A stretch of DNA of 64,000 nt from an uncultured Bacteroidales bacterium (lineage in GTDB: Bacteria; Bacteroidota; Bacteroidia; Bacteroidales; Bacteroidaceae). The notes beneath the pieces are model-generated. The model made no database searches and was not told the origin of the DNA. It worked only from the letters and a program-made list of their open reading frames with translations. A program made the position numbers and the translations under genes. Each line of letters opens with the position of its first letter. Positions within the stretch are counted from its first letter, which is position 1. The stretch spans positions 73,434 through 137,433 of the forward strand of contig CADCHQ010000013.1 in assembly GCA_902801325.1 (NCBI GenBank), written 5' to 3'. Shown here in pieces: positions 16,295 to 53,245 of the stretch.

Positions 16295-17189
16295 GTATCT
16301 TCCGATTTATATGTTCTTCTATTTGCGATATGTCGTCGGGATGGAACCAGGTGATGTCTTCGTCATGCTGGAACCAAGTCAGTTGTTTTTTGGCATACAC
16401 GCGGGTGTTCTTCTTTATTCTTTCCACCGCCATCTCCAAAGGCCATTCGCCATCGATTACGCGGAAGAGTTCTTTGTATCCAACGGTGTTCAGGGCGTTG
16501 CAATGGCGGTAGGGAATCAGCCTTCGCACTTCGTCCATCAGTCCTTCTTTCATCATCTGATCGACTCTGGCATTGATTCTGGCAAAGAGTTCCTCGCGGG
16601 GACGGTTCAGTCCTATCTTGATGATTTGGAAAGGTCTTTCCTTGTGTGTGTTGGTGCGGAATTCCGAGTAGGGGCGTCCGCTCATCAGACACACTTCGAG
16701 GGCATGAACAACCCTGCGTACGTTCTTCTTGTCGACGATGGCATAGTACTCGGGATCAAGGGTACGTAGTTCTTCCACCAATGGTTCTAGGCCTTCTTTG
16801 GCGAGACGTTCTTTGACGGCGGTTCGTATCTCATCGCTAATGGTGGGAATGTCGTCGATGCCCCGACAAACGGCGTCGATGTACATCATGCTTCCCCCCG
16901 ACAAGAGCAAGGTGTCGTGGGTTTTGAAGAGTTCGCTAGTCAGCTGGAGCACATCGGCCTCATACTGAGCGGCATTGTAGTAATCCTCCAACTTCAGTGT
17001 GCCAACGAAATAGTGCCTGACGCGTTGCAGTTGCTCGGGGGTAGGTGCAGCAGTGCCAATGCGCAGATCGGCAAACAGCTGACGACTGTCGCAGTTGATA
17101 ATGGGACTTCCAAGCATCTCTGCTAGAGAAAGGCTTAGTTCCGTCTTACCAACGGCAGTAGGGCCAAGCAATACTACAAGCGACTTCAT
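16275..17189 (-). CDS. miaA: tRNA dimethylallyltransferase
   Basis: 304 aa with P-loop GPTAVGKTELS and MiaA-like sequence throughout. Its 3' end overlaps the PBP1A start by 20 nt. Confidence 0.93.
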   Translation of the reverse strand: MKSLVVLLGPTAVGKTELSLSLAEMLGSPIINCDSRQLFADLRIGTAAPTPEQLQRVRHYFVGTLKLEDYYNAAQYEADVLQLTSELFKTHDTLLLSGGSMMYIDAVCRGIDDIPTISDEIRTAVKERLAKEGLEPLVEELRTLDPEYYAIVDKKNVRRVVHALEVCLMSGRPYSEFRTNTHKERPFQIIKIGLNRPREELFARINARVDQMMKEGLMDEVRRLIPYRHCNALNTVGYKELFRVIDGEWPLEMAVERIKKNTRVYAKKQLTWFQHDEDITWFHPDDISQIEEHINRKIHESILE

Positions 17190-17243
17190 GAGGTTATGAG
17201 GTTATGAGGTTATGAGGTTTTGAGGTTATGAGGTTTTAAGGTT
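17188..17243. repeat. Tandem 8-nt word array (ATGAGGTT)n abutting the miaA start codon
   Basis: atgaggttatgaggttatgaggttatgaggttttgaggttatgaggttttaaggtt. The miaA ATG (17187-17189, minus strand) is itself part of the repeat phase. Confidence 0.9.
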
Positions 17244-17332
17244 CTTGCTCCGCTTTGCTACGCAAGCGTAGGACTTCGTCCGTCCGATTACTTGCTCCAG
17301 TTCCTTACGCAAGCGTCCCTTGGGGCCGAGCG
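17242..17332 (+). repeat. Dispersed element, two-module copy (TTCTTGCTCC-N7-TACGCAAGCGT ... CGTCCGATTAC + TTGCTCC-N7-TACGCAAGCGT ... GCCGAGCG)
   Basis: Same two-module architecture as 49644-49739. Single modules occur at 20331, 42473 and 53327 (reverse complement). Confidence 0.85.
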
Positions 17333-17950: not shown

Positions 17951-18718
17951 TTAACGGATGAATCCGCGTTTCTCGGTGTCTTTTATGAAGTCCAGGATGT
18001 ACTCCGTCTCAGGTGTCATTCCTATTTCTTCCTTCACGCGTGCAACCTTGTCGGCAAGCAGACCTTCGCCCATGATGATGTTGAAGGCACGATGCAGTAG
18101 AGCGATGGTTTCAGGCGTGAAGCCTCTGCGACGCAGACCTACCAGATTGAGGCCGCAATAGCTTGCCGGTTCGCGAGCCGTCATGGTGTAGGGAAGGATG
18201 TTCTGATTGATTTTTGAACCTCCGCCCACCATGGTGTAACCACCGATTCGGCAGAACTGATGCACCAGCACGTGTGCGCTGAGGATGGCGTTGTCGTCGA
18301 TAACCACTTCGCCTGCCAGTTTTGAGCCGTTGCCGATGATGCAGCCATTACCCACGATGACATCGTGGGCCACGTGCATGCCCTCCATGAGGAGATTGTT
18401 GCTGCCCACCACCGTCTTGCCTTTGGCCTTTGTACCGCGGTTGACGGTGACGTTCTCGCGAATCTTGTTGTTGTCGCCTATTTCGGCCGTAGTCTCTTCG
18501 CCCACAAACTTCAGGTCTTGGGGAATGGCACTAATGACAGCACCGGGGAAGAAGATGTTGCCGTTGCCTATGCGTGCGCCGTAGAGCACGGTCACGCTAT
18601 TCATCAGGGTATTGTTGTCGCCAATGACGACATTCTTGTCAATGTAGCAGAAGGGGCCTATCTCACAGTTCTCACCAATAATGGCCTCGGGATGGATGTA
18701 TGCTAATGGACTGATCAT
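17951..18718 (-). CDS. lpxA: Acyl-ACP--UDP-N-acetylglucosamine O-acyltransferase
   Basis: 255 aa with left-handed beta-helix hexapeptide repeats and an LpxA-like C-terminal helical domain. It lies in an lpxD / lpxC-fabZ / lpxA cluster. Confidence 0.93.
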   Translation of the reverse strand: MISPLAYIHPEAIIGENCEIGPFCYIDKNVVIGDNNTLMNSVTVLYGARIGNGNIFFPGAVISAIPQDLKFVGEETTAEIGDNNKIRENVTVNRGTKAKGKTVVGSNNLLMEGMHVAHDVIVGNGCIIGNGSKLAGEVVIDDNAILSAHVLVHQFCRIGGYTMVGGGSKINQNILPYTMTAREPASYCGLNLVGLRRRGFTPETIALLHRAFNIIMGEGLLADKVARVKEEIGMTPETEYILDFIKDTEKRGFIR

Positions 18719-18719
18719 T

Positions 18720-18756
18720 AAATTAAAAATTAAAAGTTAAAAATTAAAAGTTAATT
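18720..18756. repeat. AT-rich word array directly upstream of the lpxA start
   Basis: aaattaaaaattaaaagttaaaaattaaaagttaatt. It is 36/37 identical to 42435-42471, upstream of the ACT gene. Confidence 0.9.
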
Positions 18757-18788
18757 CCTCCTCCCCTCGGGGAGGACGGAAGGGGGCC
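18757..18788 (+). repeat. G/C-rich palindromic REP-like element, copy R1
   Basis: cctcctcccctcggggagg-acgg-aagggggcc. It consists of hairpin CCTCCCC/GGGGAGG plus a G-box, between the lpxC-fabZ stop and the lpxA start. Confidence 0.85.
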
Positions 18789-18792
18789 TTCT

Positions 18793-20181
18793 TTACTTAT
18801 TCTTAATCACTTGCGCCATGAAGGTTGCCTCTGCCACACATTCCTCGCCCACGAAGGCATAGCCTTGCATGGTGGCGATGTTATGGGAGAGGGGAGCCAG
18901 CAACTCGCACTTCATGATTAGGGTATCGCCTGGCACCACTTTCTGACGGAAACGGGCGTTGTCGATTCGGAGGAAGTAGGTGCTGTAGCGCTCGGGCTCG
19001 TCGAGCAGACTCAGGATGTAGAGGCCTCCCGTCTGCGCCATAGCTTCGAGCTGAAGCACGCCAGGCATCACGGGCTCTTGTGGGAAGTGACCTTGGAAGA
19101 AGGGCTCGTTGGCAGTGACGTTCTTGATGGCCACGACACTCTTTTCCTTCAGTTCAATCACCTTGTCCACCAACTGGAACGGATAACGGTGTGGCAACAA
19201 TTCCTTGATGCGGTTGTTGTCCATGACCGGCAGTTTGGAGGGGTTGTAAACAGGGGCTTGCACGTCGAACTTGCGTATCTTCTTACGCATGAGCCGGGCA
19301 AATTTGTTGTTGATGGTGTGTCCGGGTCGCGTTGCGATGATGCGTCCCTTGATGGGTCGGCCTATCAGTGCCATATCGCCAATGATGTCGAGCAACTTGT
19401 GGCGGGCAGGTTCGTTGTCCCAGACGAGGGGTTTGTGCTGGATGTATCCCAGCACGTTGGCGTCGCGGTGTTCCACACCCGTCTTGTCACAAAGCTTGTC
19501 GAGGGCTTCCTGTGTGGTTTGCCTTTCGTAGATGACGATGGCGTTGTCGAGGTCGCCTCCCTTCACCAGTCCTGCCATGAGCAGGGGTTCTATCTCGCGA
19601 ACGAAGACGAAGGTGCGAGCAGCAGCAATCTCTGTCTCGAAGTCCTCCATGCTGTCGAGCGTGGCAAACTGACTGCTGATGAACTTCGACTGGAAGTCGA
19701 TCATCGTCGTAAGGGAGAAATCCTCGTCAGGCAAGAGTGTGATGCAAGAACCCGATTCTTCGTCCTTGATTTCTGTCTTGCTCGTGATGATATAGTAGTT
19801 CTTTGCCGCATCCTGTTCCTTGATGCCCACGCGACGAATCTCTTTCACGTAGGTCTCCGAACTACCGTCGAGGATGGGGAACTCGGGACCATCGACCTGA
19901 ATGAGTACGTTGTCGACACCCAGTGCATAGAGGGCTGCCATACCGTGTTCGATGGTGCTTACCTTGATGTCCTTCTTTCCGAGTACCGTGCCTCGGGTGG
20001 TCTCGATGACATTCTCTGCCACTGCCTCAAGGACGGGTTGCTCGGGCAAGTCGATACGCTGTATCTTATACCCGTGGTTCTCTGGGGCGGGATTGAACGT
20101 CACAGTCAGGTTCAATCCCGTGTGTAAGCCTTTTCCGCTAAGGGAGAAACTCTCGTTCAGCGTGCATTGCTTATTTGTCAT
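18793..20181 (-). CDS. lpxC: Bifunctional UDP-3-O-acyl-GlcNAc deacetylase / 3-hydroxyacyl-ACP dehydratase
   Basis: 462 aa. The N-terminal half is LpxC-like (SGKGLHTGL...). The C-terminal half is FabZ (FFQGHFPQEPVMPGVL). This fusion is typical of Bacteroidota. Confidence 0.95.
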   Translation of the reverse strand: MTNKQCTLNESFSLSGKGLHTGLNLTVTFNPAPENHGYKIQRIDLPEQPVLEAVAENVIETTRGTVLGKKDIKVSTIEHGMAALYALGVDNVLIQVDGPEFPILDGSSETYVKEIRRVGIKEQDAAKNYYIITSKTEIKDEESGSCITLLPDEDFSLTTMIDFQSKFISSQFATLDSMEDFETEIAAARTFVFVREIEPLLMAGLVKGGDLDNAIVIYERQTTQEALDKLCDKTGVEHRDANVLGYIQHKPLVWDNEPARHKLLDIIGDMALIGRPIKGRIIATRPGHTINNKFARLMRKKIRKFDVQAPVYNPSKLPVMDNNRIKELLPHRYPFQLVDKVIELKEKSVVAIKNVTANEPFFQGHFPQEPVMPGVLQLEAMAQTGGLYILSLLDEPERYSTYFLRIDNARFRQKVVPGDTLIMKCELLAPLSHNIATMQGYAFVGEECVAEATFMAQVIKNK

Positions 20182-20236
20182 AATCGTTAGTATTTGTTCT
20201 TGTTATCTTTTATCTTTATGGTCTCTTGCCAGAGGG

Positions 20237-20293
20237 CTTAGGTTCGATGATTTTGCACCTTAGGCTCGATGATTTTGCACCTTAGGTTCGAGG
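20237..20293. repeat. 22-bp tandem repeat (cttaggYtcgatgattttgcac x2.6)
   Basis: It shares the TTTGCACCTTAGG core with the 33560-33734 array. Inverted partner cgaaccttagg lies at 20386-20396. Confidence 0.85.
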
Positions 20294-20330
20294 CGCATCG
20301 AACCTATATATAATTGACCTCGAACCTATG

Positions 20331-20376
20331 TTCTTGCTCCATTGCATTACGCAAGCGTAGCTTCGCGTCCGATTAC
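20331..20376 (+). repeat. Dispersed element, single module (TTCTTGCTCC-attgcat-TACGCAAGCGTAG...CGTCCGATTAC)
   Basis: Flanked by imperfect direct repeats aattgacctcgaacctatg (20312-20330) and aattgacttcgaaccttagg (20377-20396). Confidence 0.85.
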
Positions 20377-20399
20377 AATTGACTTCGAACCTTAGGCCT

Positions 20400-21449
20400 T
20401 CATTGCAGAGCCGCTAATTGCTTCTTCAGTTCTTCTATTTCTTTCTCCATCTGATAGATTTGCTTGCTCAAGTCGGGCAAGTTCTTGAAGACAGCACTCG
20501 ACTTCCAGAAGTTGCGATACTCGAGGGCGGGATAGCCCATGAGGGTAGTTCCTTCCTTCTTCACGCTGTTGGGAATGCCCGACTGCGCCCCCACATTCGT
20601 CTTGCTGGCAATGGTGGCGTGACCTGCTATACCTACCTGTCCGCCAAACATGCACCATTCGCCCACCTTCGTGCTTCCTGCTACGCCGACTTGTGCACTC
20701 ATGACGGTGTGTGCCCCAATGTCGTCGTTGTGGGCAATCTGCACCAGGTTGTCGAGTTTCACGCCCTTGCGGACGTAGGTCGAACCCATCGTGGAACGGT
20801 CGACACAGGTGTTTGCCCCGATTTCCACATTATCTTCGATGGTGACGATACCTATCTGCGGAATCTTCTCGTATCCCTCCTCAGAAGGAGCAAAGCCGAA
20901 TCCGTCGGCACCGATGACGCATCCTGCATGCAGAATGCAGTTGTTGCCCACCTTGCAATCGTGATAAACGACGGCATTGCTGTATATCTCCGTGTTGTCT
21001 CCCACAGTTGCCTTTGCACCGATGGTCACATGGGGATGCAGCACGCAGCCTTTACCTATCACTGCACCCTCGCCAATGGCAACGAAGGGACCTATGTAAC
21101 AGTCCTCGCCAATGGTTGCAGTCGGGTCGATGAAAGCAAGTGAGTCGATGCCCTTCTTCTTGGGTTTCATGCTATCGTAGAGGGTAAGCAGCTTGGCAAC
21201 GGTCTCATAGGCGTTGTCCACCCTGATTAGGGTTGCCTTTGTCTCTCCCTCCAGCTGGAAGTCCTTGTTCACGAGTACGATACTGCTCTTAGTCTCATAG
21301 AGATAGTGTGCATACTTGGGATTGGCAAGGAACGAGATGCAACCGGGGCGGCCTTCCTCAATCTTCGCAAAATCATTAATCTTCACTCCGGGGTCTCCCT
21401 CGATAGTACCTCCCACGAGGCCTGCTATTTGTTGTGCTGAAAATTCCAT
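20400..21449 (-). CDS. lpxD: UDP-3-O-(3-hydroxyacyl)glucosamine N-acyltransferase
   Basis: 349 aa with N-terminus [18 protein letters not shown], a long hexapeptide-repeat beta-helix and a C-terminal coiled tail. Confidence 0.93.
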
Positions 21450-21506
21450 CTTATTTAATTCATAATTTATAATTCATAATCTTTTTGTCCTCAATCTCTC
21501 ATCCTC

Positions 21507-22394
21507 TCATTTTCTCAATTTCTCAATCTCTTTCGCCATTTGCTGTTGCACCTTATGTGCTTCCTCACCTGCTCGCAGGGCAAAGTCCTCGCCGTTGGAG
21601 GCATAGATGATGGCACGACTGGAGTTGACGATGAGGCCGCAATCCTTCGTCATTCCGTAACGGCAAACCTCCTCCAAGCTGCCTCCCTGTGCGCCTATAC
21701 CAGGCACCAACAGGAAGTGGTTGGGAACTATCTTGCGAATGTCCTCGAAGGCGCGTCCTTGCGTTGCACCAACGACGTACATCATTTGGTCTTCATCGGC
21801 CCATTCCTGACTCTTGCGCAATACTCTCTCATACAGTTTTTCAGAGGATGGTTCCTCCCCCTCGGGGGAGTTAGAGAGGGGTCGCGTCTGGAAGTCTTGA
21901 CTTCCTTTATTACTGGTGAGCGCAAGAAGAATCACCCAATGCTGTCTATGCTTCTCCTTCCCCTCGGGGGAGGTTGGGAGAGGGGTCTCCAGGAAGGGCG
22001 TAACGCTGTCCTCACCCATGTATGGGGCCACGGTGACGGCATCCACGTCCAGTGTCTCGAAGAACGTGCGTGCATAGAGTTTCGACGTATTACCTATGTC
22101 GCCGCGCTTGGCATCGGCAATGATGAATTGGTCGGGATAGTTCGAGCGGATGTATTCCACCGTCTTCTCGAAGGCAATCCACCCCTTCACACCCATAGCC
22201 TCGTAGAAGGCCAGATTGGGTTTGTAGGCAATGCAGTAGGGCGCCGTGGCATCGATGATGGCCTTGTTGAACGCAAAGATAGGGTCTTCCTCCGTGAGCA
22301 GGTGCTCGGGAATCTTTTGTATGTCGGTGTCGAGTCCTACGCAGAGGAAACTCTTCTTCCTTCGTATGTTTGCTATTAATTCTTGTCTTGTCAT
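21507..22394 (-). CDS. pyrF: Orotidine-5'-phosphate decarboxylase (type 2) carrying two in-frame repeat-derived inserts
   Basis: 295 aa with motifs FLCVGLDT and [12 protein letters not shown]. The segments [12 protein letters not shown] and [11 protein letters not shown] are encoded by repeat copies R3 and R2. Confidence 0.9.
21854..21883 (+). repeat. REP-like element copy R2, inside the pyrF coding sequence
   Basis: cctccccctcgggggag-ttag-agaggggtc. On the coding strand it reads [11 protein letters not shown] in frame. Confidence 0.85.
21956..21990 (+). repeat. REP-like element copy R3, inside the pyrF coding sequence
   Basis: ccttcccctcgggggagg-ttgg-gagaggggtctcc. On the coding strand it reads [11 protein letters not shown] in frame. 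Confidence 0.85.
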
Positions 22395-22639
22395 TTCTTT
22401 ATCTTTCTTTTAATTCCTAAAACCATAGCTATTACAACGCAGGCAAGCAGGAATATCACCATTTGTACCAGGAAGAACATCAAGGTGCTGTCAGTCTTTC
22501 CCATCCATCTCAGGCAGGGCTGTGTCAGAAGTGCTGCTATGGCAACGGCGATAATAATCGGCCATTCTTCCTTCATTGACTTCTTGAAGCCTTCCCATGT
22601 CCATTCTTCCTTGATATCTTTGAGTAGTCCCATAGTCAA
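22391..22639 (-). CDS. Small two-TM membrane protein, hypothetical
   Basis: 82 aa with two hydrophobic segments and a basic tail KRKIKK. Its stop overlaps the pyrF ATG (ATGA), and its start is 7 nt after the upstream stop. Confidence 0.5.
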
Positions 22640-22646
22640 TTTTGCT

Positions 22647-24341
22647 TTATTTTGTGAATAAGTATCCGTTCGTGTTTATGTTGTATTTGCTGAAGTAAAA
22701 ATAGGTCATGTAATAAGCGCAGTTGCCTTGTTTCGTCTTCAGTTCAATGGGGTAGAGCATTTTCTTGTCGAGTTTTTTCAGGGCATCGAGATTAACCCTC
22801 AGGGTGTCGATGTTGTTCCCTTCGTTGTCGTTGACGGGGATGTCGATGAAGCCACTCTTTTTCTCCAAGGTTACGGAAAGGTCCTTTTCCTCCACCTTGC
22901 TGTATCCCTCGGGTATATCTATTTGCTTGGTCTCGGCAAAGTTGCTGTATGAGAAATACTTTTCTTGCTTTTCCTCTTCTTCTTTGTTGACGTATGTGAG
23001 GAAGGGGATGCCTTCGTTCTCTTGGTTTACGAGGGATTCTATCGACTCCCGGTTGAATGTGCCTTCCAAGTAGGAAAGTTTGGCGCTGATGGCCGAAGCC
23101 TCGTCCTTCGGTAATGCCTTCATCAACTTGTCATATCCGCTTGCGTCCAGAGGACTTGTCACTTGGTGGTCCTTAAGCGTGTGGCGTACTTCGCGCAACA
23201 ATTGACGGCGGGTGAAATTCGTGAAATTGAAGGGCAAGGCCGATGTCAGGAGGAAGAGCGCTGCAAAGGAGATGCTAATCCACTTGATGCGACGTGCACG
23301 AGTCAGGAAGAGGGTGATGCAAACGGCATAGAACCAGAGATTGAGCAGGACAAGATAGAGGCGATGAATCGTGATGCCGTAGTCGCTCAGTCGGCGATAT
23401 ATGCCTATGCTCATCAGCAGTATCAAGGGGATGAGCAGGAGAGGCAGATAGCGTGCCACATTCTCGTCGTACTTGCGTCCTTCGCGTTTACGGACTGGGT
23501 AAAGTCCAAACTCAATGGCGATGCATCCTATCATGGACGCAATCACGAGCCACGACACGTGTCCGTTGGGCAATTCCCAATGGAAGAGAATCTTCAGGGC
23601 ATAGATGTATAGCACCAGCAGATATAATCCCTCGAGAGGTACGAAGATGTATCGCATTACGTTGCCAAGGAAGGCTGTCTGCAAGGGTTCTCTCTTGTGC
23701 TTCTCCTCGCCCTTAGGTATGCGGCCGAGGAACAACAGTGTCGGCAGGTATAAGGCGCAGAGCGTACCCATCACCAAATACCATTTTATATCGAGATCGA
23801 TAGAGAACAGCAGTTTGAGGGAAAACAAAAGAATGCTGACGCCTCCCCATAGCACGAAGCCTATGAGGAAGGTAATGAAGAGGTTGACCAGTATGGAAAG
23901 CGTAAAGTTCCAGGAGGCGATGTCGTCGCGTTCTCTTCCAAAGGAAAGGAAGAAAATGCTCAGAACCAACGCAAAGATTGCCGAAGCATGCATGAGAAAG
24001 ACTTCCCACCCGTTGCCAACGCCGAAATTGATGTTGTACAGATAAATGGTGTCGGCCAACAGGATGGCGTATGACACGATTTGAATGGTGTCGGTTCGCC
24101 GGTTCTCCTCCTGCTCTTCCGTCCAAAGCGCAAGGGTGAGGGAGAGCACAAGGCCAACGGAGAGGAAATAGCTCAGTGCCTTTATCAGTTGTTCATAGGG
24201 CCTAACCTGGTCGGATGCAACGATGATATAGATAAGAAACAGAGCCAGCGCCGTAGCAAATGCCATTGGTGAAGGGAAGCGCTTCGCACAAGTGTGGAAC
24301 GCCGTCGTCACAAATCTCAAGTTCTTTTGTATCCTATTCAT
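22647..24341 (-). CDS. Polytopic inner-membrane protein (DUF4153-like, tentative) with a soluble C-terminal domain
   Basis: 564 aa. About 10 or more hydrophobic helices span the first 400 aa or so, followed by a hydrophilic C-terminal region. Confidence 0.55.
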   Translation of the reverse strand: MNRIQKNLRFVTTAFHTCAKRFPSPMAFATALALFLIYIIVASDQVRPYEQLIKALSYFLSVGLVLSLTLALWTEEQEENRRTDTIQIVSYAILLADTIYLYNINFGVGNGWEVFLMHASAIFALVLSIFFLSFGRERDDIASWNFTLSILVNLFITFLIGFVLWGGVSILLFSLKLLFSIDLDIKWYLVMGTLCALYLPTLLFLGRIPKGEEKHKREPLQTAFLGNVMRYIFVPLEGLYLLVLYIYALKILFHWELPNGHVSWLVIASMIGCIAIEFGLYPVRKREGRKYDENVARYLPLLLIPLILLMSIGIYRRLSDYGITIHRLYLVLLNLWFYAVCITLFLTRARRIKWISISFAALFLLTSALPFNFTNFTRRQLLREVRHTLKDHQVTSPLDASGYDKLMKALPKDEASAISAKLSYLEGTFNRESIESLVNQENEGIPFLTYVNKEEEEKQEKYFSYSNFAETKQIDIPEGYSKVEEKDLSVTLEKKSGFIDIPVNDNEGNNIDTLRVNLDALKKLDKKMLYPIELKTKQGNCAYYMTYFYFSKYNINTNGYLFTK

Positions 24342-24349
24342 TATCTTTT

Positions 24350-24393
24350 AATCGTCCAATCGTGAAATTGTGAAATCGTGAAATTGTCAAATC
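24350..24393. repeat. Tandem 8-nt word array (AATCGTGA/AATTGTGA) filling the prfA-to-next-gene spacer
   Basis: aatcgtccaatcgtgaaattgtgaaatcgtgaaattgtcaaatc. It occupies nearly the whole 52-nt spacer between the prfA stop (24394) and the downstream ATG (24341). Confidence 0.9.
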
Positions 24394-25494
24394 TCAAAGC
24401 GCTGCTTCCTTCATTCTTTCAGCATTCTCCGCCACGATGAGGTGGTCGATGCAGTCCTGTATGTCTCCGTCCATGAAGGCGGCAAGGTTGTAGATGGTGT
24501 ATCCAATGCGGTGGTCGGTGATGCGTCCTTGTGGATAGTTGTAGGTACGTATCTTTGCCGAACGGTCGCCGGTGGAGACCATCGTCTTGCGTCTGCTGGC
24601 GATGTCGTCGATGTACTTCTGATGCTCCTTGTCGTAGATGAAGGTACGCAGGCGAGCCAAAGCCCTTTCCTTGTTCTTCGGCTGGTCGCGAGTCTCGGTG
24701 CACTCCACGAGTATCTCCTCCGTTTCGCCAGTGTTGGGGTTTGTCCACATGTAGCGGGCACGCACACCCGACTCCACCTTGTTCACATTCTGTCCGCCGG
24801 CACCACTGCTTCGGAAGGTGTCCCACTTGATGGCGCCTTCGTTGATTTCCACGTCGAACTCCTCGGCTTCGGGCAATACGGCAACGGTGGCTGCACTGGT
24901 GTGTACTCGGCCTTGTGTCTCCGTAACGGGTACTCGCTGAACGCGATGCACACCTGATTCGTATTTCAGTATACCATATGCTCCTTCGCCAGTCACACTG
25001 AAGACGATTTCCTTGTAACCACCCGATGCACCCTCGCTAAAGCTGGAAACGGAAGTCTTCCAACCCTTCGTCTCGCAATATTTCGAGTACATGCGGAACA
25101 GGTCGCCAGCAAAGAGAGCGGCTTCGTCGCCTCCCGTTCCTCCGCGTATTTCCATGATGACATTCTTGTCGTCTTCAGGATCGGCAGGGATGAGGAGCAG
25201 TTTGATTTCCTCCTCCAACTCGGGCAATCTTTGTTCACTTGCCGCCAGTTCCTCGCGCAGCATTTCCTTCGTCTCGGGGTCATCCTCCAGTGCCAGCATC
25301 TCCTTAGCATCCTGCACATTCTGAAGGTGTCCCATATATTCCTTCCGCGCCTCCATGATACGTCCCAAGTCCTTGTATTCCTTGGTCAGCTTCACGTAGC
25401 GTTTTTGGTCGGCTATCACACTCGGGTCGGTAATCAGCGTCGACACTTCCTCGTATCGTGCTACCAGGCCTTCCAGTTTATTTAATAGATCCAT
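24394..25494 (-). CDS. prfA: Peptide chain release factor 1
   Basis: GGQ motif (SSGAGGQNVNKVES) and RF1 PVT tripeptide (RVPVTETQG). I place the start at MDLLNKLEGL (ATG 25492-25494). The ORF-track extension to 25557 is read through repeat R4. Confidence 0.92.
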   Translation of the reverse strand: MDLLNKLEGLVARYEEVSTLITDPSVIADQKRYVKLTKEYKDLGRIMEARKEYMGHLQNVQDAKEMLALEDDPETKEMLREELAASEQRLPELEEEIKLLLIPADPEDDKNVIMEIRGGTGGDEAALFAGDLFRMYSKYCETKGWKTSVSSFSEGASGGYKEIVFSVTGEGAYGILKYESGVHRVQRVPVTETQGRVHTSAATVAVLPEAEEFDVEINEGAIKWDTFRSSGAGGQNVNKVESGVRARYMWTNPNTGETEEILVECTETRDQPKNKERALARLRTFIYDKEHQKYIDDIASRRKTMVSTGDRSAKIRTYNYPQGRITDHRIGYTIYNLAAFMDGDIQDCIDHLIVAENAERMKEAAL

Positions 25495-25508
25495 AATTCT
25501 ATCTAAAG

Positions 25509-25547
25509 ACCCTCTCCCCAAACCCTCTCCCTTAAGGGCGAGGGAGG
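25509..25547 (-). repeat. REP-like element copy R4 (reverse orientation, TTAAGG-loop variant)
   Basis: gaccctctcccc-aaa-ccctctcccttaagggcgagggagg. Its reverse complement resembles R6. Confidence 0.8.
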
Positions 25548-25597
25548 TAATCTTCAACTTTCAATCTTACTTTTTATATTTAACTTGCCTTCTTTTC

Positions 25598-25623
25598 TCT
25601 CCCCTCGGGGAGTCGGAGGGGGC
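25598..25623 (+). repeat. REP-like element copy R5
   Basis: ctctcccctcggggag-tcgg-agggggc, immediately after the esterase stop codon (25625). Confidence 0.85.
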
Positions 25624-25624
25624 T

Positions 25625-26479
25625 TTACTTAAAATTCCTCGATACGAAGGGCAGACATAGGCGCAGGGCGTTGTGCCAGTATTCCCAAGAATGTCCTCCG
25701 TCACGAACACGTAGCTGGGCATCGAAACGCTTCAGGCGCAGTTTCTTGTACAACTCGATGTTGTTGTCGAAGAGGAAATCATCGTCACCACAATCGATGA
25801 AGAACTTTATCTGGCGCAGGGTGCTTAGTTCCGCCTCACTGGCGTTGTCCAGCTTGTCGAACGGATTACGTTTTGCCACAGCATTGGTCACCTGTGCCAC
25901 TTTGTCATCGAGTGGAGCATCAGCACGTGCTTGGGCATTTAGCCAGGCACTCATGGGGTAGCAGGCGCAGAACATGTCGGGATGTCCCAGGGCATAGCCT
26001 ACGCTGCCGCCTCCGCCCATCGACAGGCCTGCCACGGCGCGTTGTCCGCGACTGCCTCCGGCTCGGTATTTCTGCTCCACGGCAGGCAGGAGTTCCTGGA
26101 AGAAGTGGTCTTCGTAGGCCCAGCCGGGCATGTTGAAGTATCCGTTCCAGACGTTCTTCGTGTCGGGGCCTCCGGCACAGGGCATGACGATGACCATCTT
26201 CTGTGCCTCGCCGGTGGCCATCAGTTCGTCGGCCACGCGGTCCATTTGTCCCTTGTCCTGCCACGAGCGTTCGTCGTCGGTGAATCCGTGCAATAGGTAG
26301 AGGACGGGGTAGTGACGGTCTGTCTCTCTCTGGAAACCAGCGGGCAGATACACCATGAAGTAGCGCTGAACGCCCAGTACTTCACTCTTAATGGAGTCGC
26401 GGATGACAGCGGCGTCTGCCTGCAGGGCAAACATCAGGCTGATTAGTAAGCAAAATGCTTTTTGGATGGTCTTTTTCAT
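25625..26479 (-). CDS. Secreted alpha/beta-hydrolase, esterase D / CE1-like putative esterase
   Basis: 284 aa with a signal peptide. Motifs YPVLYLLHG and nucleophile elbow GLSMGGGGS. Confidence 0.8.
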   Translation of the reverse strand: MKKTIQKAFCLLISLMFALQADAAVIRDSIKSEVLGVQRYFMVYLPAGFQRETDRHYPVLYLLHGFTDDERSWQDKGQMDRVADELMATGEAQKMVIVMPCAGGPDTKNVWNGYFNMPGWAYEDHFFQELLPAVEQKYRAGGSRGQRAVAGLSMGGGGSVGYALGHPDMFCACYPMSAWLNAQARADAPLDDKVAQVTNAVAKRNPFDKLDNASEAELSTLRQIKFFIDCGDDDFLFDNNIELYKKLRLKRFDAQLRVRDGGHSWEYWHNALRLCLPFVSRNFK

Positions 26480-26565: not shown

Positions 26566-27732
26566 TTAGTACTCAAACGTCCCAAATTCACTCTTGATAG
26601 TCAGACTCTTTCGTCCTTCTTCGATGCGGCCGATGACTTGTGCATCGATGTTGAAGGAACGACTTATCTCGATGACGCGATCTGCATCCTCGGGAGAGAG
26701 GTAAACCTCCAGTCGATGGCCCATGTTGAACACCTTGTAGGCTTCGCTGTAGTCGGTCCCGCTTTCCTTTATGATGGCTTTGAAGAGGGGAGGAACGGGG
26801 AACATGTTGTCCTTTATGACGCGACAGTTCTCACCCACGAAGTGCAACACCTTTGTCTGTGCTCCACCTGTGCAGTGTACCATTCCGTGTATCTTCGGAC
26901 GCAGCTCGTCGAGCAGTTTCTTCACTACCGGAGCATAGGTGCGAGTGGGGGAGAGGACGAGTTTGCCAGCGTTGATGGGCGAACCCTCAACTGGGTCTGT
27001 CAGTTTGTACGAACCACTGTACACGAGTTCCTCAGGCACGGCCTTGTCATAGCTCTCGGGATATTTCTCGGCCAAGTATTTGCTGAAGACGTCGTGTCGG
27101 GCGCTGGTAAGTCCGTTCGAACCCATTCCGCCGTTGTACTCCTTCTCGTAGGTGGCCTGTCCAAAGCTTGCGAGGCCCACGATGACGTCGCCCGGACGGA
27201 TGTTCTTGTTGTCAATCACGTCACTACGCTTCATGCGGCAGGTAACCGTAGAGTCCACGATGATGGTACGAACGAGATCGCCCACGTCGGCCGTCTCTCC
27301 GCCAGTGGCATAGATGCCGATACCCATGTCGCGCATCTGCTGCAGCAGTTCGTCGGTACCGTTAATGATGGCAGAAATCACCTCGCCCGGGATGAGCATC
27401 TTGTTGCGGCCTATGGTGCTGCTGACCAAGATGTTGTCCGTAGCACCCACGCACAGCAGGTCGTCGGTATTCATGATCAGGGCATCCTGTGCGATACCTT
27501 TCCACACCGAGAGGTCGCCCGTCTCTTTCCAGTACATATAAGCCAGGCTCGACTTCGTTCCAGCCCCGTCGGCATGCATGATGTTGCACCATTCGGGGTC
27601 GCCGCCCAGTATGTCGGGAATAATCTTGCAGAAAGCCTGCGGGAAGAGGCCTTTGTCGATGTTCTTGATGGCGTTGTGCACGTCCTCCTTAGCTGCCGAC
27701 ACGCCCCTCAGCATGTAACGTTGATTTTCCAT
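26566..27732 (-). CDS. purM: Phosphoribosylformylglycinamidine cyclo-ligase (AIR synthetase)
   Basis: Motif MHADGAGTKSSLAY with the PurM fold throughout. I place the start at MENQRYMLRGVSA (ATG 27730-27732). The 35-codon upstream extension in the ORF track looks non-coding. Confidence 0.92.
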   Translation of the reverse strand: MENQRYMLRGVSAAKEDVHNAIKNIDKGLFPQAFCKIIPDILGGDPEWCNIMHADGAGTKSSLAYMYWKETGDLSVWKGIAQDALIMNTDDLLCVGATDNILVSSTIGRNKMLIPGEVISAIINGTDELLQQMRDMGIGIYATGGETADVGDLVRTIIVDSTVTCRMKRSDVIDNKNIRPGDVIVGLASFGQATYEKEYNGGMGSNGLTSARHDVFSKYLAEKYPESYDKAVPEELVYSGSYKLTDPVEGSPINAGKLVLSPTRTYAPVVKKLLDELRPKIHGMVHCTGGAQTKVLHFVGENCRVIKDNMFPVPPLFKAIIKESGTDYSEAYKVFNMGHRLEVYLSPEDADRVIEISRSFNIDAQVIGRIEEGRKSLTIKSEFGTFEY

Positions 27733-27895
27733 TCTTCGTATGCTCTTTTTTACTAGTCGGGCGTAAAGATACGAAGAATTATCGAGTTGGCAAAATCTTG
27801 CGCGCGCGATTTGCCCCTTTTGTGTGAAAAGGGACATCTTTTGTTACGTACGGGTGTGTAACAATTGAGGAAATACAGTAGTATTAAACCCTACA

Positions 27896-33559: not shown

Positions 33560-33734
33560 CTTCCGATTTTGCACCTTAGGTCTTCCGCGTTTGCGCCTTA
33601 GGTCTTCCGCGTTTGCACCTTAGGTCTTCCGCATTTGCGCCTTAGGTCTTCCGCGTTTGCACCTCAGGTCTTCCGCGTTTGCGCCTTAGGTCTTCCGCGT
33701 TTGCACCTCAGGTGCTCGGCGTTTGTGCCTTAGG
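33560..33734. repeat. Tandem array of eight 22-bp units (tcttccgcgtttgcRccttagg) with 44-bp higher-order alternation
   Basis: Unit boundaries are at 33560, 33581, 33603, 33625, 33647, 33669, 33691 and 33713. Units alternate between gcGcc and gcAcc variants and abut directly without spacers. Confidence 0.92.
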
Positions 33735-33778
33735 CCTTCGTCGCTAGGGCAAGCGTGCTCTGCCAATCCTATAATTGA

Positions 33779-34743: not shown

Positions 34744-34797
34744 ATTTGACGATTTGACGATTTGACGATTTCACAACTTTCAACTCTCAACTGTCAC
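34744..34797. repeat. Tandem 8-nt word array (ATTTGACG)3 followed by degenerate words
   Basis: atttgacgatttgacgatttgacgatttcacaactttcaactctcaactgtcac. It lies upstream of the purC ATG and overlaps the phoH stop. The same word recurs at 45311-45353. Confidence 0.85.
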
Positions 34798-35761: not shown

Positions 35762-35790
35762 ATGGCAAATGGCAAATGGCAAATGGCAAA
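35762..35790. repeat. Tandem 7-nt array (ATGGCAA)4 in a divergent intergenic region
   Basis: atggcaaatggcaaatggcaaatggcaaat, between phoH (minus strand) and the M15-like gene (plus strand). Confidence 0.9.
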
Positions 35791-35813
35791 TATTTCTTAT
35801 ATTTGTGGTCGAA

Positions 35814-42434: not shown

Positions 42435-42471
42435 AAATTAAAAATTAAAAGTTAAAAATTAAAAATTAATT
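42435..42471. repeat. AT-rich word array directly upstream of the ACT gene start
   Basis: aaattaaaaattaaaagttaaaaattaaaaattaatt, 36/37 identical to 18720-18756. Confidence 0.9.
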
Positions 42472-42472
42472 G

Positions 42473-42523
42473 TTCTTGCTCCGGCAAGCTACGCAAGCGT
42501 CACAGCTTCGCAGATGCCGAGCG
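42473..42523 (+). repeat. Dispersed element, single module (TTCTTGCTCC-ggcaagc-TACGCAAGCGT...GATGCCGAGCG)
   Basis: The first 29 nt are identical to the reverse complement of the 53327-53373 copy. It is flanked by aaaaattaatt and aaaaattagg. Confidence 0.85.
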
Positions 42524-43853: not shown

Positions 43854-43916
43854 AATTATGAATTAGAAATTACGAATTATGAATTACGAATTAGAAATTA
43901 CGAATTACGAATTATG
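43854..43916. repeat. Tandem 7-8-nt word array (AATTACG/AATTATG/AATTAGA)
   Basis: aattatgaattagaaattacgaattatgaattacgaattagaaattacgaattacgaattatg, upstream of the paaK paralog 1 start. A degenerate reverse copy of the dispersed element follows at about 43918-43960. Confidence 0.88.
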
Positions 43917-45278: not shown

Positions 45279-45353
45279 AATTTACGATTTACGGATTTAC
45301 GATTTACGATTTATTTGACGATTTTACAATTTTACGATTTGACGATTTATTTG
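45279..45353. repeat. Tandem 7-8-nt word array (ATTTACG / ATTTGACG)
   Basis: aatttacgatttacggatttacgatttacgatttatttgacgattttacaattttacgatttgacgatttatttg. It fills the spacer between the symporter stop and the paaK paralog 2 start. Confidence 0.88.
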
Positions 45354-49354: not shown

Positions 49355-49643
49355 ACCTATCAAATTAATACAAATCGGTTGCAAATATACAAAATCTTTT
49401 ACGAATAAGCGAAGGAAAATAGAAGAATTGTAAAAACTCGTTCGTGCGAAGGGCTTTTCAGTTTTTTCTTTGATGATTAATAGGTTAAACAATAATTTAG
49501 TTTTGTGGGAGGAGAGAAGGGGTAAGGGGCAAGAGAATACGTTTGCCGACGGTGTATCTCTCAACAGGTCTTTGCAATTTGAACGCTTGTTCAGTGCCCT
49601 TCGAACAATTGTTTAATTATCATCGAGCCTGCTTTCGTTGAAC

Positions 49644-49739
49644 TTCTTGCTCCTCTTTGTTACGCAAGCGTAGACCCTTTGGGTCGTCCGATTACTTGCT
49701 CCTCTTCGTTACGCAAGCGTCTCCTATCGTCGCCGAGCG
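49644..49739 (+). repeat. Dispersed element, two-module copy
   Basis: ttcttgctcc-tctttgt-tacgcaagcgtag...cgtccgattac plus ttgctcc-tcttcgt-tacgcaagcgt...cgtcgccgagcg. The terminal gccgagcgcg can pair with cgcgactcggc about 12 nt downstream. Confidence 0.88.
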
Positions 49740-50127: not shown

Positions 50128-50730
50128 ATGAGAAAGATTATCATTACTTTATGGGCTGTGATGATTATGTTGCCGGCCTTCTCTCAAGAGAAGGACCTGA
50201 CAAAGGACGTCACAATGGTTTCTTATGAGCAAAGGAAGGGGGATGGCGAAGGAAAGCTTGCACTTAGGAACAACACTGAGGCGGTGATAATGGATGTCGT
50301 TTTCCAACTTACCTATTTTGATAAGTCGGGTACTCCCCTCGATAGCGCAGACTTTAAGGAATGGGTGTATGCTGATCCTGGAAAGACTGCGGTGCTTGAC
50401 ATTCCGGCTTATCAGATAGAACGTGATGATTACAAGTCTGGGAATAACTCCAGCGATTCTCTTGACTTCAAAGTTGAATTTGAACTGAAGGATTATAATA
50501 CCGATTCGTTTGCCGTTAAAGGGTCTGACAAGGCTTCGCTTGTTTCATTCTTGGTGACTATATTTATAATAGTTTCTGTACTTGCGATATGGATAGTCTT
50601 GTATTACCTTGTTGCCGTGATGGCCATAAAACGAAACCGTAGTGTGATAAAATGGCTTTTGTTGAGTATCCTCATCACGCCTCTTCTCGCCGCTTTAATT
50701 CTTCTTGTAGTGGGGGAAAAGGGGGTGTAA
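50128..50730 (+). CDS. Hypothetical membrane protein (signal peptide, about 130-aa extracytoplasmic domain, two C-terminal TM helices)
   Basis: 200 aa with lower G+C than its neighbours. I recognise no family. Confidence 0.5.
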   Translation: MRKIIITLWAVMIMLPAFSQEKDLTKDVTMVSYEQRKGDGEGKLALRNNTEAVIMDVVFQLTYFDKSGTPLDSADFKEWVYADPGKTAVLDIPAYQIERDDYKSGNNSSDSLDFKVEFELKDYNTDSFAVKGSDKASLVSFLVTIFIIVSVLAIWIVLYYLVAVMAIKRNRSVIKWLLLSILITPLLAALILLVVGEKGV

Positions 50731-50806
50731 AAGTTTAAAGTTTAACGGTTAACGGGTTAAAAGTTTAAAAGGTTAAAAGTTTAAGGGTTAAAGGGTTAAA
50801 GGGTTA
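50729..50806. repeat. Tandem word array (AAAGTTTAA / AAGGGTTAA)
   Basis: aaaagtttaaagtttaacggttaacgggttaaaagtttaaaaggttaaaagtttaagggttaaagggttaaagggttag. It shares its leading words with 53209-53245. Confidence 0.88.
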
Positions 50807-50880: not shown

Positions 50881-51513
50881 TCAGGCTTGTTCCCGTCCGA
50901 TGGAGAGGGCCTTGATGTTAGCCTCGACGATGGCGTCACCCTTGCGAGAGAAGACGCGACGAACGGCCTGTTCCATCTTCTCGTAGGCAATGCCGAGGGC
51001 CTTCTGGGCAGCACCTAGGAGGATGACGTTGGCCGAACGGGGCACACCGTTGTCCTTGGCCAGTTGCTCGATGTCGATGGCAATGACGTGCTTCACACTT
51101 GCCAGTTCGGCCTTGATGCCCTCCAGATCGGGATAGTTGGGAATGTTCACAAACGGTGCGCTGGACGTGATGATCCATCCGTCCTTATGGAGGTAGGGGA
51201 GGTAGCGCAGGGCTTCCATCGGTTCCATGGAGATGATGACGTCGGCACCACCCAGGGCTATCAGGTCGCTGGCAATGGGGTCGCTGCTGATGCGGAGATT
51301 CGACTGCACGTCGCCGCCTCGCTGACTCATGCCGTGAACTTCGGCCTGCTTGATGTATAAGTTCTCGTTCATGGCGGCCTCACCAATGATGGTTGCTATC
51401 GAGAGGATGCCTTGTCCTCCTACGCCGCAGAGGATTATGTCACACTTCAGACTCACCCCCGACCCCTCTCTTGTAGCGAGGGGAGTGGTTACTGTTGAAT
51501 TGTTAGTATTCAT
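50881..51513 (-). CDS. iorB: Indolepyruvate:ferredoxin oxidoreductase, beta subunit
   Basis: DIILCGVGGQGILS with an IorB-like sequence. The first 19 or so codons of the ATG-initiated ORF are repeat R7. A GTG at 51454-51456 is an alternative start. Confidence 0.88.
   Translation of the reverse strand: MNTNNSTVTTPLATREGSGVSLKCDIILCGVGGQGILSIATIIGEAAMNENLYIKQAEVHGMSQRGGDVQSNLRISSDPIASDLIALGGADVIISMEPMEALRYLPYLHKDGWIITSSAPFVNIPNYPDLEGIKAELASVKHVIAIDIEQLAKDNGVPRSANVILLGAAQKALGIAYEKMEQAVRRVFSRKGDAIVEANIKALSIGREQA
51454..51487 (-). repeat. REP-like element copy R7 (reverse orientation)
   Basis: caccccc-gacccctctcttgtagcgaggggagtgg. The reverse complement gives hairpin CTCCCCTCGC..AGAGAGGGG plus a G-box. 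Confidence 0.75.
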
Positions 51514-51555: not shown

Positions 51556-51592
51556 CCCCCCTCCTTAACAGGGAGGGGTTTGGGGGAGAGTC
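51556..51592 (+). repeat. REP-like element copy R8, overlapping the 3' end of iorA
   Basis: cccccctccttaacagggagggg-tttgg-gggagagtc. It encodes the last residues TLPQTPPC and carries the TAA stop (51565-51567) in its loop. Confidence 0.8.
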
Positions 51593-53199
51593 TTCTTCTC
51601 CTTTGCGTGTCTTTTGAAAGTCTGTATGCACTCGCGCTGGGGAATAATCACCGAAACGCCTTTGTATTCAATCTCCTGACGCATGACGCGTTTGATTTCC
51701 TCCATGTTCTTTGGCAGGGGAATGACAACGTGCAGATGTTCGCGTTCTACGCCCAAGGCCAGACAGATGGCTTCGTACTTATGAGTTCCTGCAGAGTCCT
51801 GTCCGCCCGTCATGGCAGTGGTCAGGTTGTCGCTGATGATGACGGTGATGGAAGCGTGGTCGTTGACGGCATCCAGCAAGCCCGTCATGCCTGAATGGGT
51901 GAAGGTGGAATCGCCAATGACGGCAATGGCAGGATGGACACCAGCATCGGACGCACCCTTGGCCATCGTTATCGATGCACCCATGTCCACACAACTGTCG
52001 ATTGCTTGATAAGGGGGAAGAGCACCCAGTGTGTAGCAACCGATGTCGCCGAAGACGCGAGCCGTGGGGTAGTCCTTCAGCACTTCGTTGAGTGCGGAAT
52101 AAACGTCGCGATGACCGCATCCCTGACACAACTGAGGAGGACGTGCGGCAAGGTTCAGTGCCTTTTCGTAAGCTATCTCATTCTTCTTTCCAAAGGCCTC
52201 TGCCACATTGTCGGGATTCAGTTCGCCTGTTCGAGGCAAGCGACCTGTCATGCGTCCGCTAACGGGATAGTCGGCAGAAAGCAGTGTGCGAACTTGCTCT
52301 TCGACGAAGGGTTGTCCGTCTTCTACCACCAGTATCTCGGAGCACCGGCTTGCCATTGCGCAAATCTTTTCGGCGGGCAGTGGATACTGAGAAACCTTCA
52401 ACAAAACAGTGTTCTCTGGTTTGGCTTCGAGTACGTAGTTATAGCCAATTCCGCATGCAATAACACCCAGAGTTTCAGATGAATTACCTTCTTTCTGTTC
52501 ATCAAGTGCTTCAAGTCTATTAAAGGCTGACTCTTCGGCAGATTTCTTGATCTCCGTTTGCTTCTCGATGAGACTTGCATACTGTCGCTTGGCATTGCCT
52601 GGAAGCAGAACCCAGTGCGTGCGTTGGTTGTCGGGATTCAGTTCGTTGACGGCTGTCGGTTCGCCTACTTCTACGGAAGCACGCGAATGAGCCAATCGGG
52701 TAACGATGCGCATCAGGACGGGCAACTTCAAGGCCTCGCTCAGGGCGTAGGCTTTCTGCATCATGTCGTAGGCCTCCTGTTGGTTGGAGGGCTCCATGAT
52801 GGGGATCATCGCAAACTTGCCATAGAAGCGCGAGTCCTGTTCGTTCTGACTGGAGTGCATCGAGGGGTCGTCGGCAGCTACCACAACCAAACCTCCGTTT
52901 ACGCCTGTTATGGCAGCATTGACGAAGGCATCGGCACATACGTTCATGCCCACGTGCTTCATGCATACCAAAGCTCGCTTGCCGGCATACGACATGCCCA
53001 ATGCAGCCTCCATTGCCGTCTTCTCATTGGTGCACCAACGGCTGTGGACACAGCGTTCCTTGGCCAGAGGGTGGTGCTGAATGTATTCGGTGATTTCCGT
53101 CGATGGCGTGCCGGGATAGGCATAAACGCCAGATAGCCCTGCATGCAGCGCACCCAGAGCTATCGCTTCGTCGCCTAAGAGTAAAAGATGGTTGTTCAT
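51565..53199 (-). CDS. iorA: Indolepyruvate:ferredoxin oxidoreductase, alpha subunit
   Basis: 544 aa with a TPP-enzyme N-terminus LLLLGDEAIALGALHAG, AADDPSMHSSQNEQDSR and cysteine motif CQGCGH. Confidence 0.92.
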   Translation of the reverse strand: MNNHLLLLGDEAIALGALHAGLSGVYAYPGTPSTEITEYIQHHPLAKERCVHSRWCTNEKTAMEAALGMSYAGKRALVCMKHVGMNVCADAFVNAAITGVNGGLVVVAADDPSMHSSQNEQDSRFYGKFAMIPIMEPSNQQEAYDMMQKAYALSEALKLPVLMRIVTRLAHSRASVEVGEPTAVNELNPDNQRTHWVLLPGNAKRQYASLIEKQTEIKKSAEESAFNRLEALDEQKEGNSSETLGVIACGIGYNYVLEAKPENTVLLKVSQYPLPAEKICAMASRCSEILVVEDGQPFVEEQVRTLLSADYPVSGRMTGRLPRTGELNPDNVAEAFGKKNEIAYEKALNLAARPPQLCQGCGHRDVYSALNEVLKDYPTARVFGDIGCYTLGALPPYQAIDSCVDMGASITMAKGASDAGVHPAIAVIGDSTFTHSGMTGLLDAVNDHASITVIISDNLTTAMTGGQDSAGTHKYEAICLALGVEREHLHVVIPLPKNMEEIKRVMRQEIEYKGVSVIIPQRECIQTFKRHAKEKKTLPQTPPC

Positions 53200-53208
53200 A
53201 TATGTGAT

Positions 53209-53245
53209 AAAAGTTTAACGTTTAAAGTTTAACGGTAAATGTTTA
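53209..53245. repeat. Tandem word array (AAAGTTTAA) upstream of iorA
   Basis: aaaagtttaacgtttaaagtttaacggtaaatgttta, a direct-orientation relative of 50729-50806. Confidence 0.85.

Follow-up and report, generated by a model that had tools for sequence, protein, structure and literature searches.

In-frame copies of a dispersed hairpin repeat in pyrF of a Prevotella-like Bacteroidales genome

The window analysed here, i.e. the whole 64-kb stretch from an uncultured Bacteroidales bacterium, carries pyrF, the gene for orotidine-5'-phosphate decarboxylase (OMPDC), and two short G/C-rich segments within this gene match a hairpin repeat that is also found in the nearby intergenic spacers. These segments most probably (a rough probability of 0.8) represent copies of a dispersed DNA repeat resembling REP (repetitive extragenic palindromic) sequences, which entered pyrF in a Prevotella-like lineage and have been kept in frame and translated. 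The repeats form a family that has colonised genes in frame, with either orientation and every reading frame represented, and that also occurs in a fixed orientation just after stop codons.

Two copies of a hairpin repeat within pyrF

The gene, the two copies inside it and the two intergenic copies of the window, which are taken to be the spacer elements R1 and R5 of the earlier note, are as follows.

21507..22394, minus strand: pyrF, the host gene, 295 aa (open reading frame (ORF) list; Pfam OMPdecase, E = 4e-26)
21954..21989, minus strand: element copy at pyrF site 1, sense strand GAGACCCCTCTCCCAACCTCCCCCGAGGGGAAGGAG, comprising C-box, C-arm, loop and G-arm
21852..21884, minus strand: element copy at pyrF site 2, sense strand CGACCCCTCTCTAACTCCCCCGAGGGGGAGGAA, net addition of 24 nt
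18756..18788, minus strand: intergenic copy (R1) upstream of lpxA, TAA AGAAGG CCCCCTTCCGTCCTCCCCGAGGGGAGGAGGAA
25597..25623, minus strand: intergenic copy (R5) after an esterase-family gene, TAA AG CCCCCTCCGACTCCCCGAGGGGAGAGAA

The reading frame of pyrF is unbroken, the catalytic DAKRGD motif is invariant in the alignment of relatives (D22, K58, D94, K96 and D99), and the product aligns to solved type-2 OMPDC structures, e.g. 3r89 and 4mjz. The plus-strand sequences of the site-1 and site-2 copies are CTCCTTCCCCTCGGGGGAGGTTGGGAGAGGGGTCTC (21954-21989) and TCCTCCCCCTCGGGGGAGTTAGAGAGGGGTCG (21853-21884), and the copies are translated in the pyrF frame as residues 136-146 and 171-181, respectively. 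Relative to the hairpin, both are read in the same frame. As the earlier note had described, they are oriented alike and lie 35 codons apart, and the protein is longer by roughly the 20 residues proposed there, i.e. by 20-21 aa compared with insert-free orthologs (274-275 aa). The extent given for the inserts needed correction at site 1: two repeat copies are indeed present, but the full extra segment at this site is 21939-21989 (E136-H152), in which 17 codons stand in place of 5 (net +36 nt), and it contains 15-18 nt (..EKHRQH) outside the dispersed repeat consensus. The description of pyrF as an essential gene also holds in part, in that the gene is needed for de novo pyrimidine synthesis, but it is only conditionally essential. 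Purifying selection acts on pyrF, as seen from the comparison of the window with locus L082 (86.5% DNA identity and 91% protein identity), and both inserts are kept in strains 92-100% identical to the window. A 279-aa antisense ORF (21540-22379, plus strand) spans the whole of pyrF including both elements; spurious long antisense ORFs of this kind arise partly because the G/C-rich repeats are stop-free.

Similarity between the pyrF segments and the intergenic element, on which the earlier note had based its proposal, is well beyond chance. There are exactly two occurrences of the 13-mer CCCCTCGGGGGAG in the window (0.06 expected), a number reached in none of 100 shuffles. The three-box pattern described below was found four times in the 64-kb window (shuffle mean, 0.25), the hairpin followed by a G-box three times (0.0 in shuffles), and the window together with loci L081-L087 contains 20 elements, compared with 0-1 in shuffles. 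These copies were counted by explicit hairpin and box scans with shuffle controls, whereas blastn-short searches (word size, 7) gave mostly noise and served for candidate spotting only. In addition, the copy in the lpxC spacer of L081, GAGACACCTCTCCCAACCTCCCCCGAGGGGAAAGAGAA, is nearly identical to the site-1 copy of the window, which links the copies inside and outside genes by their DNA sequence.

The element is about 27-40 nt long, with a stem of 6-9 pairs. Read on one strand, it is composed of a C-box, R-N-CCCCTC(Y)CC, a 2-5-nt spacer, a C-arm, CTCCCCC, a 2-5-nt loop and a G-arm, GGGGGAG-R-G. Because the C-box repeats the C-arm, both are able to pair with the G-arm. In all inserts defined by protein alignment, an arm made up of C and T alone pairs with a purine arm (6-9 pairs; loop, 2-5 nt), and there is an additional box, which is C-rich and upstream or, in elements read the other way, G-rich and downstream. 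The predicted RNA hairpins of the inserts range from -12 to -25 kcal/mol. The subtypes covary by paired changes (CTCCCCC/GGGGGAG versus CCCTCTCC/GGAGAGGG), with the C-box shifting in step; the hairpin is thus preserved via compensatory change. Across 98 metagenomic copies, the ends conform to R-N-CCCCTC … GGGGGAG-R-G, and 69 of the 98 cores are free of stop codons whichever of the six frames is read. The hairpin is single and central rather than terminal, and the length remains below 45 nt.

Occupancy of the pyrF sites among relatives

A total of 82 pyrF genes were parsed, namely that of the window, those of 80 species representatives obtained by a genome scan and those of relatives retrieved by exact protein look-up. 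The genome-scan orthologs are mainly insert-free and more distant (<=75% identity, among the matches listed) and are informative on the ancestral state; the loci of close relatives were obtained separately through the exact protein look-up. In 69 of the 82 Bacteroidales genes, among the matches listed, three loop positions of the protein have lengths of 6, 9 and 6 aa, respectively, and these short loops were seen in Bacteroides, Phocaeicola, Parabacteroides, Proteiniphilum and named Prevotella species. The corresponding lengths in the window PyrF are 18, 17 and 6 residues. The ancestral pyrF sites were therefore empty. This result agrees with the earlier note's statement that these positions are short in type-2 PyrF of Bacteroides, and the distant Bacteroidota orthologs do not carry the extra peptides.

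DNA alignments with relatives having none, one or three inserts gave net additions of 36 nt at site 1, 24 nt at site 2 and 27 nt at site 3. Site 3 is filled in relatives only, and the element there lies in the opposite orientation. Among proteins 75-100% identical to that of the window, seven of the eight possible occupancy combinations of the three sites were found, 'site 3 only' being the missing one. For example, the site-1 insert is missing in P0055/L081 and P0116/L083, which have GYEGK/GHEGK in its place, and the site-2 insert is missing in P0031/L082, L081, L085 and L086. The same inserts are present in dozens of independent assemblies (ENA, NCBI, JGI and Logan) on contigs of up to 300 kb, and the frame is always kept. 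In a 261-aa PyrF variant (P0039) from a 1.5-kb contig, precisely the stretch of 34 codons that separates the two element copies, including a strand, is missing; this gap reflects either recombination between direct repeats or assembly collapse.

Turnover at a fixed site is seen in the pyrF genes of L082 and L085, which are 92% identical and have identical DNA at the empty sites 2 and 3. Their sites 1 contain different hairpin subtypes, and 25 of the 69 differences between the two genes fall in the 60 columns of this site. Every subtype has the conserved ..R(Q/N)H codons on the 3' side of site 1. Site 1 appears to represent one old insertion, followed by hairpin replacement or fast compensatory evolution, and gene conversion from other copies would be the simplest account of the subtype turnover.

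The position of the inserts in the protein was considered using an AlphaFold model built from 78 close homologs, for which Foldseek retrieved OMPDC structures first (template modelling score, about 0.53). In this weak model (mean predicted local distance difference test score (pLDDT), 61), site 1 falls in coil that connects helix 128-136 to strand 154-158, site 2 in coil flanked by helices 162-170 and 187-198, and site 3 between helix 187-198 and strand 205-209. The inserts fall at gaps or variable stretches in comparison with solved OMPDCs, and the site-2 region is long and variable in solved type-2 enzymes. In a (βα)8 barrel, the helix-to-strand loops are located on the face opposite the active site. 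A location of sites 1 and 3 on the face away from the active site would fit this arrangement, and the modelled positions are consistent with the inserts being tolerated surface loops.

Copies in intergenic spacers and other genes, and further repeats

In the sense strand of the intergenic copy at 18756-18788, the C-run begins 6 nt past the TAA stop codon (18793-18795) of lpxC/fabZ, and in that at 25597-25623, it begins 2 nt past the TAA stop codon (25625-25627) of the esterase-family gene. The orthologous spacers downstream of lpxC/fabZ contain the element in the window, L081, L087 and L084, the last with two copies and an inverted dimer, whereas those of L082, L083 and L085 are empty. A terminator scan found no sense-strand terminator-like site and no U-tract at any of the four window copies, and the pyrF copies run on into coding sequence. 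Rfam 15 gave no match at gathering score in the window and nothing at the elements in 18500-26000 at E values of up to 5. Outside genes, the element probably acts as a 3' stem-loop in mRNA.

Metagenomic DNA was scanned with the pattern CCCCTC N5-10 CTCCCCCGAGGGGGAG, which yielded at least 120 loci, and the census gave 243 matches in 2.09 Mb of fetched low-GC DNA that had been selected for the motif. Context classes were computed for 100 copies on contigs with <58% GC, among the matches listed, a scope that also applies to the counts from this census given in the next paragraph. The intragenic class was assigned by a naive ORF-based procedure.

Inside ORFs of at least 120 aa: 50 of 100 copies
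Within 45 nt of an ORF end: 16 of 100 copies
Intergenic: 34 of 100 copies

The intragenic copies occur in both orientations (28 versus 22) and are read in all six frames, giving peptides that include LPLGGxGEG, SPSGExERG and PPRGRxGEG. Among the intergenic copies, 15 of the 34 begin <=22 nt after a stop codon of the same sense, mostly at 1-6 nt. Pfam domains were detected in 17 of the 20 largest host ORFs, to which this check was applied, and the hosts supported in this way include FeoAB, MetRS, DnaG, QueA, QueG and a class-V aminotransferase, as well as CcsA/ResB, an arabinofuranosidase, an acyltransferase and a histidine kinase. About five element copies are present in one metagenomic QueG ORF (L129:1131-2348), and one copy was found in a MiaB-like radical-SAM gene of L015. 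In purM, inverted dimers are inserted in frame in two loci (L026:7370-7490 and L083:725-830), adding 30 and 15 aa, but there is no element in purM of the window (26566..27837) or of L086.

The element family was found in only about 6 of the 80 species loci, all of which belong to rumen/gut Prevotella-like metagenome-assembled genomes (MAGs), among the matches listed. Viral contigs of IMG/VR yielded two matches only, which argues that the element is not phage-borne. In L086 and L087, the sole copies within about 20 kb around pyrF are those inside pyrF; as the loci were picked through pyrF, the appearance of this gene as a special target is biased by ascertainment. A similar three-box repeat, CCCCTCACCCTGCCCTCTCCCCCGAGGGGGAG, was observed on contigs with 64-74% GC (L089, L091, L103, L116, L121, L126, L130 and others), often inside ORFs, suggesting that the three-box architecture may reach beyond Bacteroidales. 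In the window, partial C-run/G-run motifs are located at 51456-51471 and 51573-51590, close to where a POR-family gene begins (50881..51513) and at the 3' end of a thiamine pyrophosphate-enzyme gene (51565..53199), respectively; these may be decayed element copies and were left out of the counts.

The window contains several other repeats. The spacers just upstream of many gene starts consist of short tandem arrays of A/T-rich 7-8-nt units, such as ATGAGGTT (x7), AAATTAA (x5) and AATTACG (x8.7), and the orthologous spacers in L082 and L085 have a different unit, CTCTAAA. These arrays may be a leader or translation-initiation feature of the lineage. A 22-nt tandem array of about eight copies, CTTCCGCGTTTGCACCTTAGGT, occupies 33560-33739 between the shikimate dehydrogenase and purC genes, and a related 22-mer, CTTAGGTTCGATGATTTTGCAC, is present in 2.5 copies at 20237-20291 between lpxD and lpxC/fabZ. 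A second family of dispersed repeats, about 40 nt in length (GTTCTTGCTCC…TTACGCAAGCGTA…; families D4 and D8) contains the palindrome TACGCAAGCGTA.

17188-17243, 18720-18754, 24350-24393, 34744-34771, 35762-35791: A/T-rich arrays
42435-42469, 43854-43914, 45280-45349, 50723-50806, 53208-53245: A/T-rich arrays
17241-17317, 20323-20371, 42472-42513, 49636-49733: second repeat family (about 40 nt), all in spacers downstream of minus-strand genes

Origin of the inserts and comparison with known systems

The element copies would have entered pyrF in a Prevotella-like lineage at positions that, for the two sites filled in the window, correspond to short loops of the ancestral enzyme. In a needed gene, the survivors would be only those insertions that add 3n bases without a stop codon, and the C/G-run composition of the element would make such insertions easy. 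Since most copies are stop-free in six frames, the inserts would simply be translated as extra residues, i.e. 8-12 residues in the form of PLxxSPEGE-type peptides in loops of the TIM barrel. The inserts are likely to be translated and harmless, and the insert-bearing PyrF presumably remains active. Copying may take place on single-stranded hairpin DNA by a Y1 HUH (RAYT-like) enzyme and/or by gene conversion between copies. The copying step is the least certain part of this proposal; recognition of single-stranded hairpins by a Y1 HUH enzyme is suggested by a design built around a hairpin, by REP-like positions and by a TnpA-REP subclass specific to Bacteroidetes (PMC6006769), but neither such a gene nor a tag or an intermediate was seen in the DNA analysed. 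A broader proposition, to which we assign slightly less than even odds, is that the elements constitute an undescribed and very abundant family of 27-40-nt hairpins in rumen/gut Prevotella-like Bacteroidales, six-frame-open, about half translated and subtype-switching, with up to about five copies per gene. If true, machinery that copies and converts DNA hairpins would have to be active, and the elements would be a major ongoing source of loop-length variation in the proteome of a dominant gut clade.

Several observations weigh against the insertion of a mobile, REP-like repeat as the origin of the pyrF segments. The insert edges are defined only approximately, since the codons next to them have diverged as well. 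No terminal inverted repeat (TIR) and no target duplication were found at filled versus empty sites (pyrF and the lpxC spacer), and the tags of classical REPs were also not found, the frequencies of GTAG/CTAC (14/98) and CGTC/GACG (3/98) near an end being at background level. There is no transposase or RAYT among the 41 window proteins scanned with Pfam, and no HUH-like ORF, as judged by eye, between element pairs in ten loci. At site 1, the conserved ..RQH lies outside the dispersed consensus, so that this site may represent one old event rather than recurrent insertion. The low confidence of the structural model and the naive nature of the intragenic counts, in which the Pfam check covered the 20 largest ORFs only, point in the same direction.

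Some of these features would be expected if the hairpins had arisen or been homogenised locally, whether through gene conversion from other copies or through quasipalindrome template switching at loop codons rich in purines, the family then spreading by recombination rather than transposition. The absence of terminal repeats, target duplications and a transposase in the scans made is in line with such an origin, as are the subtype swap at a fixed site in near-identical genes and the fact that the ancestral codons at site 1 (CAC GAA GGC AAA) and site 2 (GAA GAC) already resemble the G-arm. Yet the same sequence of at least 30 nt is present at unrelated loci and genes, in both orientations and in all frames, a copy-in step would still be needed at new sites, and conversion accounts for turnover but not for the first arrival; a local origin is therefore considered unlikely. 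The extra peptides could alternatively be ancestral loops of a PyrF subfamily that were lost elsewhere, with their likeness to intergenic DNA due to compositional chance, and the site-1 segment, including ..R(Q/N)H, is common to many relatives at 75-100% identity and could be old. This explanation is already contradicted by the data and is highly improbable: the 6/9/6 loops prevail across many genera, genes that are nearly identical differ in occupancy, up to about 33/35 nt are shared with intergenic copies, and the motif is at least 16-fold more frequent than in shuffles.

A role of the intragenic hairpins as selected regulatory RNA of nucleotide-synthesis genes, e.g. in CTP/UTP-sensitive pausing or attenuation in pyrF and purM, would accord with the presence of three sites in pyrF and one in purM, with the restriction of copies to pyrF in the surroundings of this gene in L086 and L087, and with the conservation of stems by compensatory change. 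The element is, however, found in dozens of unrelated genes (feoAB, dnaG, metG, glycosidases and kinases), lies in the opposite orientation at site 3, and shows neither a sense-strand U-tract or terminator-like context at the copies nor an Rfam match, and the apparent enrichment in pyrF reflects the choice of loci via this gene; we regard such a role as very unlikely. Finally, an assembly or sequencing artefact, such as chimeric joins at G/C-rich hairpins, could explain the gap between copies in P0039 as repeat collapse, but it deserves almost no weight given the recurrence of the inserts, always in frame, in dozens of independent assemblies and on contigs of up to 300 kb. Insertion of a dispersed REP-like repeat into short loops of PyrF thus remains the preferred reading.

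Translated palindromic repeats have so far been treated mostly as a peculiarity of Rickettsia and a few REP-rich species, whereas the elements described here belong to a dominant and partly culturable gut/rumen clade. Owing to the huge public metagenomic sampling of this clade, natural populations can be used to trace sites with and without the element, changes of subtype and deletions between copies, and the questions of what copies the elements, why they are in frame and whether new protein loops arise from them become testable. The elements lengthen proteins, create spurious antisense ORFs and provide recombination-prone direct repeats within genes (as in the P0039 deletion), and in Prevotella-like genomes they can cause errors in annotation, orthology assignment and assembly.

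The closest parallel in behaviour is provided by the Rickettsia palindromic elements (RPEs), which were reportedly described as RPE-1 to RPE-8 by Ogata et al. in 2000 and 2002. Like the RPEs, the pyrF family consists of dispersed palindromic repeats, many of them in frame in housekeeping genes, which stay functional in the RPE hosts; relatives differ in whether a copy is present, one gene may contain several copies, and the genes are intact with empty sites in relatives (the three sites of pyrF, purM and many others). The RPE-like colonisation suggested by the earlier note is borne out in this sense, by the three polymorphic pyrF sites and the in-frame copies in many real genes. The family differs from the RPEs in its length (about 27-40 nt versus roughly 100-150 nt for RPE-1), its three boxes of C and G runs, its host range (Prevotella-like Bacteroidaceae MAGs of the Bacteroidales rather than Rickettsiales) and its strong second habitat right after stop codons. 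No sequence relationship was noticed, the two being set apart by length, composition and host, without direct alignment of their consensus sequences. The RPEs are summarised in PMC3733652, and intragenic REPs have been reported in Opitutus terrae, Thauera and R. conorii (PMC3733652, PMC3116915).

The family shares with REPs and REPINs the format of a repeated, G/C-rich imperfect palindrome of 20-40 nt that occurs as singletons and inverted dimers, a fixed orientation just downstream of ORFs (mostly <20 bp for REPs) and the translation of some copies within genes. Unlike the GTAG-/CGTC-tagged REPs and REPINs, it has neither tag at either end; about 50 of 100 copies are intragenic, among the matches listed, compared with a small minority in classical REPs; an extra C-box duplicates the 5' arm; and no RAYT gene, which in REP systems is usually single-copy with the repeats on its flanks, was found among the window proteins scanned or in ORFs between element pairs. 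A Bacteroidetes-specific TnpA-REP subclass is flanked by 'atypical secondary structures' (PMC6006769), and it resembles the present case in belonging to the same phylum and in having hairpin repeats unlike canonical REPs, a likeness of hairpins by description only. There is no such gene in the window or the fetched loci; hypothetically, this subclass is nevertheless the most plausible candidate for the copying enzyme.

[quoted passage not shown] The palindromic G/C clusters and byp elements of yeast mitochondria are likewise short mobile G/C-rich hairpins that invade coding genes of a less G/C-rich genome. The location of short G/C-rich hairpins in protein-coding genes is common to both cases, but byp is skipped by the ribosome and many G/C clusters are untranslated, and the biological system is unrelated; being in frame and stop-free, the Bacteroidales copies need no recoding. 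In agreement with the earlier note, searches of the open full-text literature, subscription journals being outside this coverage, found no description of in-frame elements in Prevotella or Bacteroidales; general precedents for such elements are given in PMC3733652, PMC6006769, PMC2229807 and PMC3184786. The family is best described as REP/RPE-like palindromic elements that are translated inside genes and that stand outside the described RPE, REP and MITE families.

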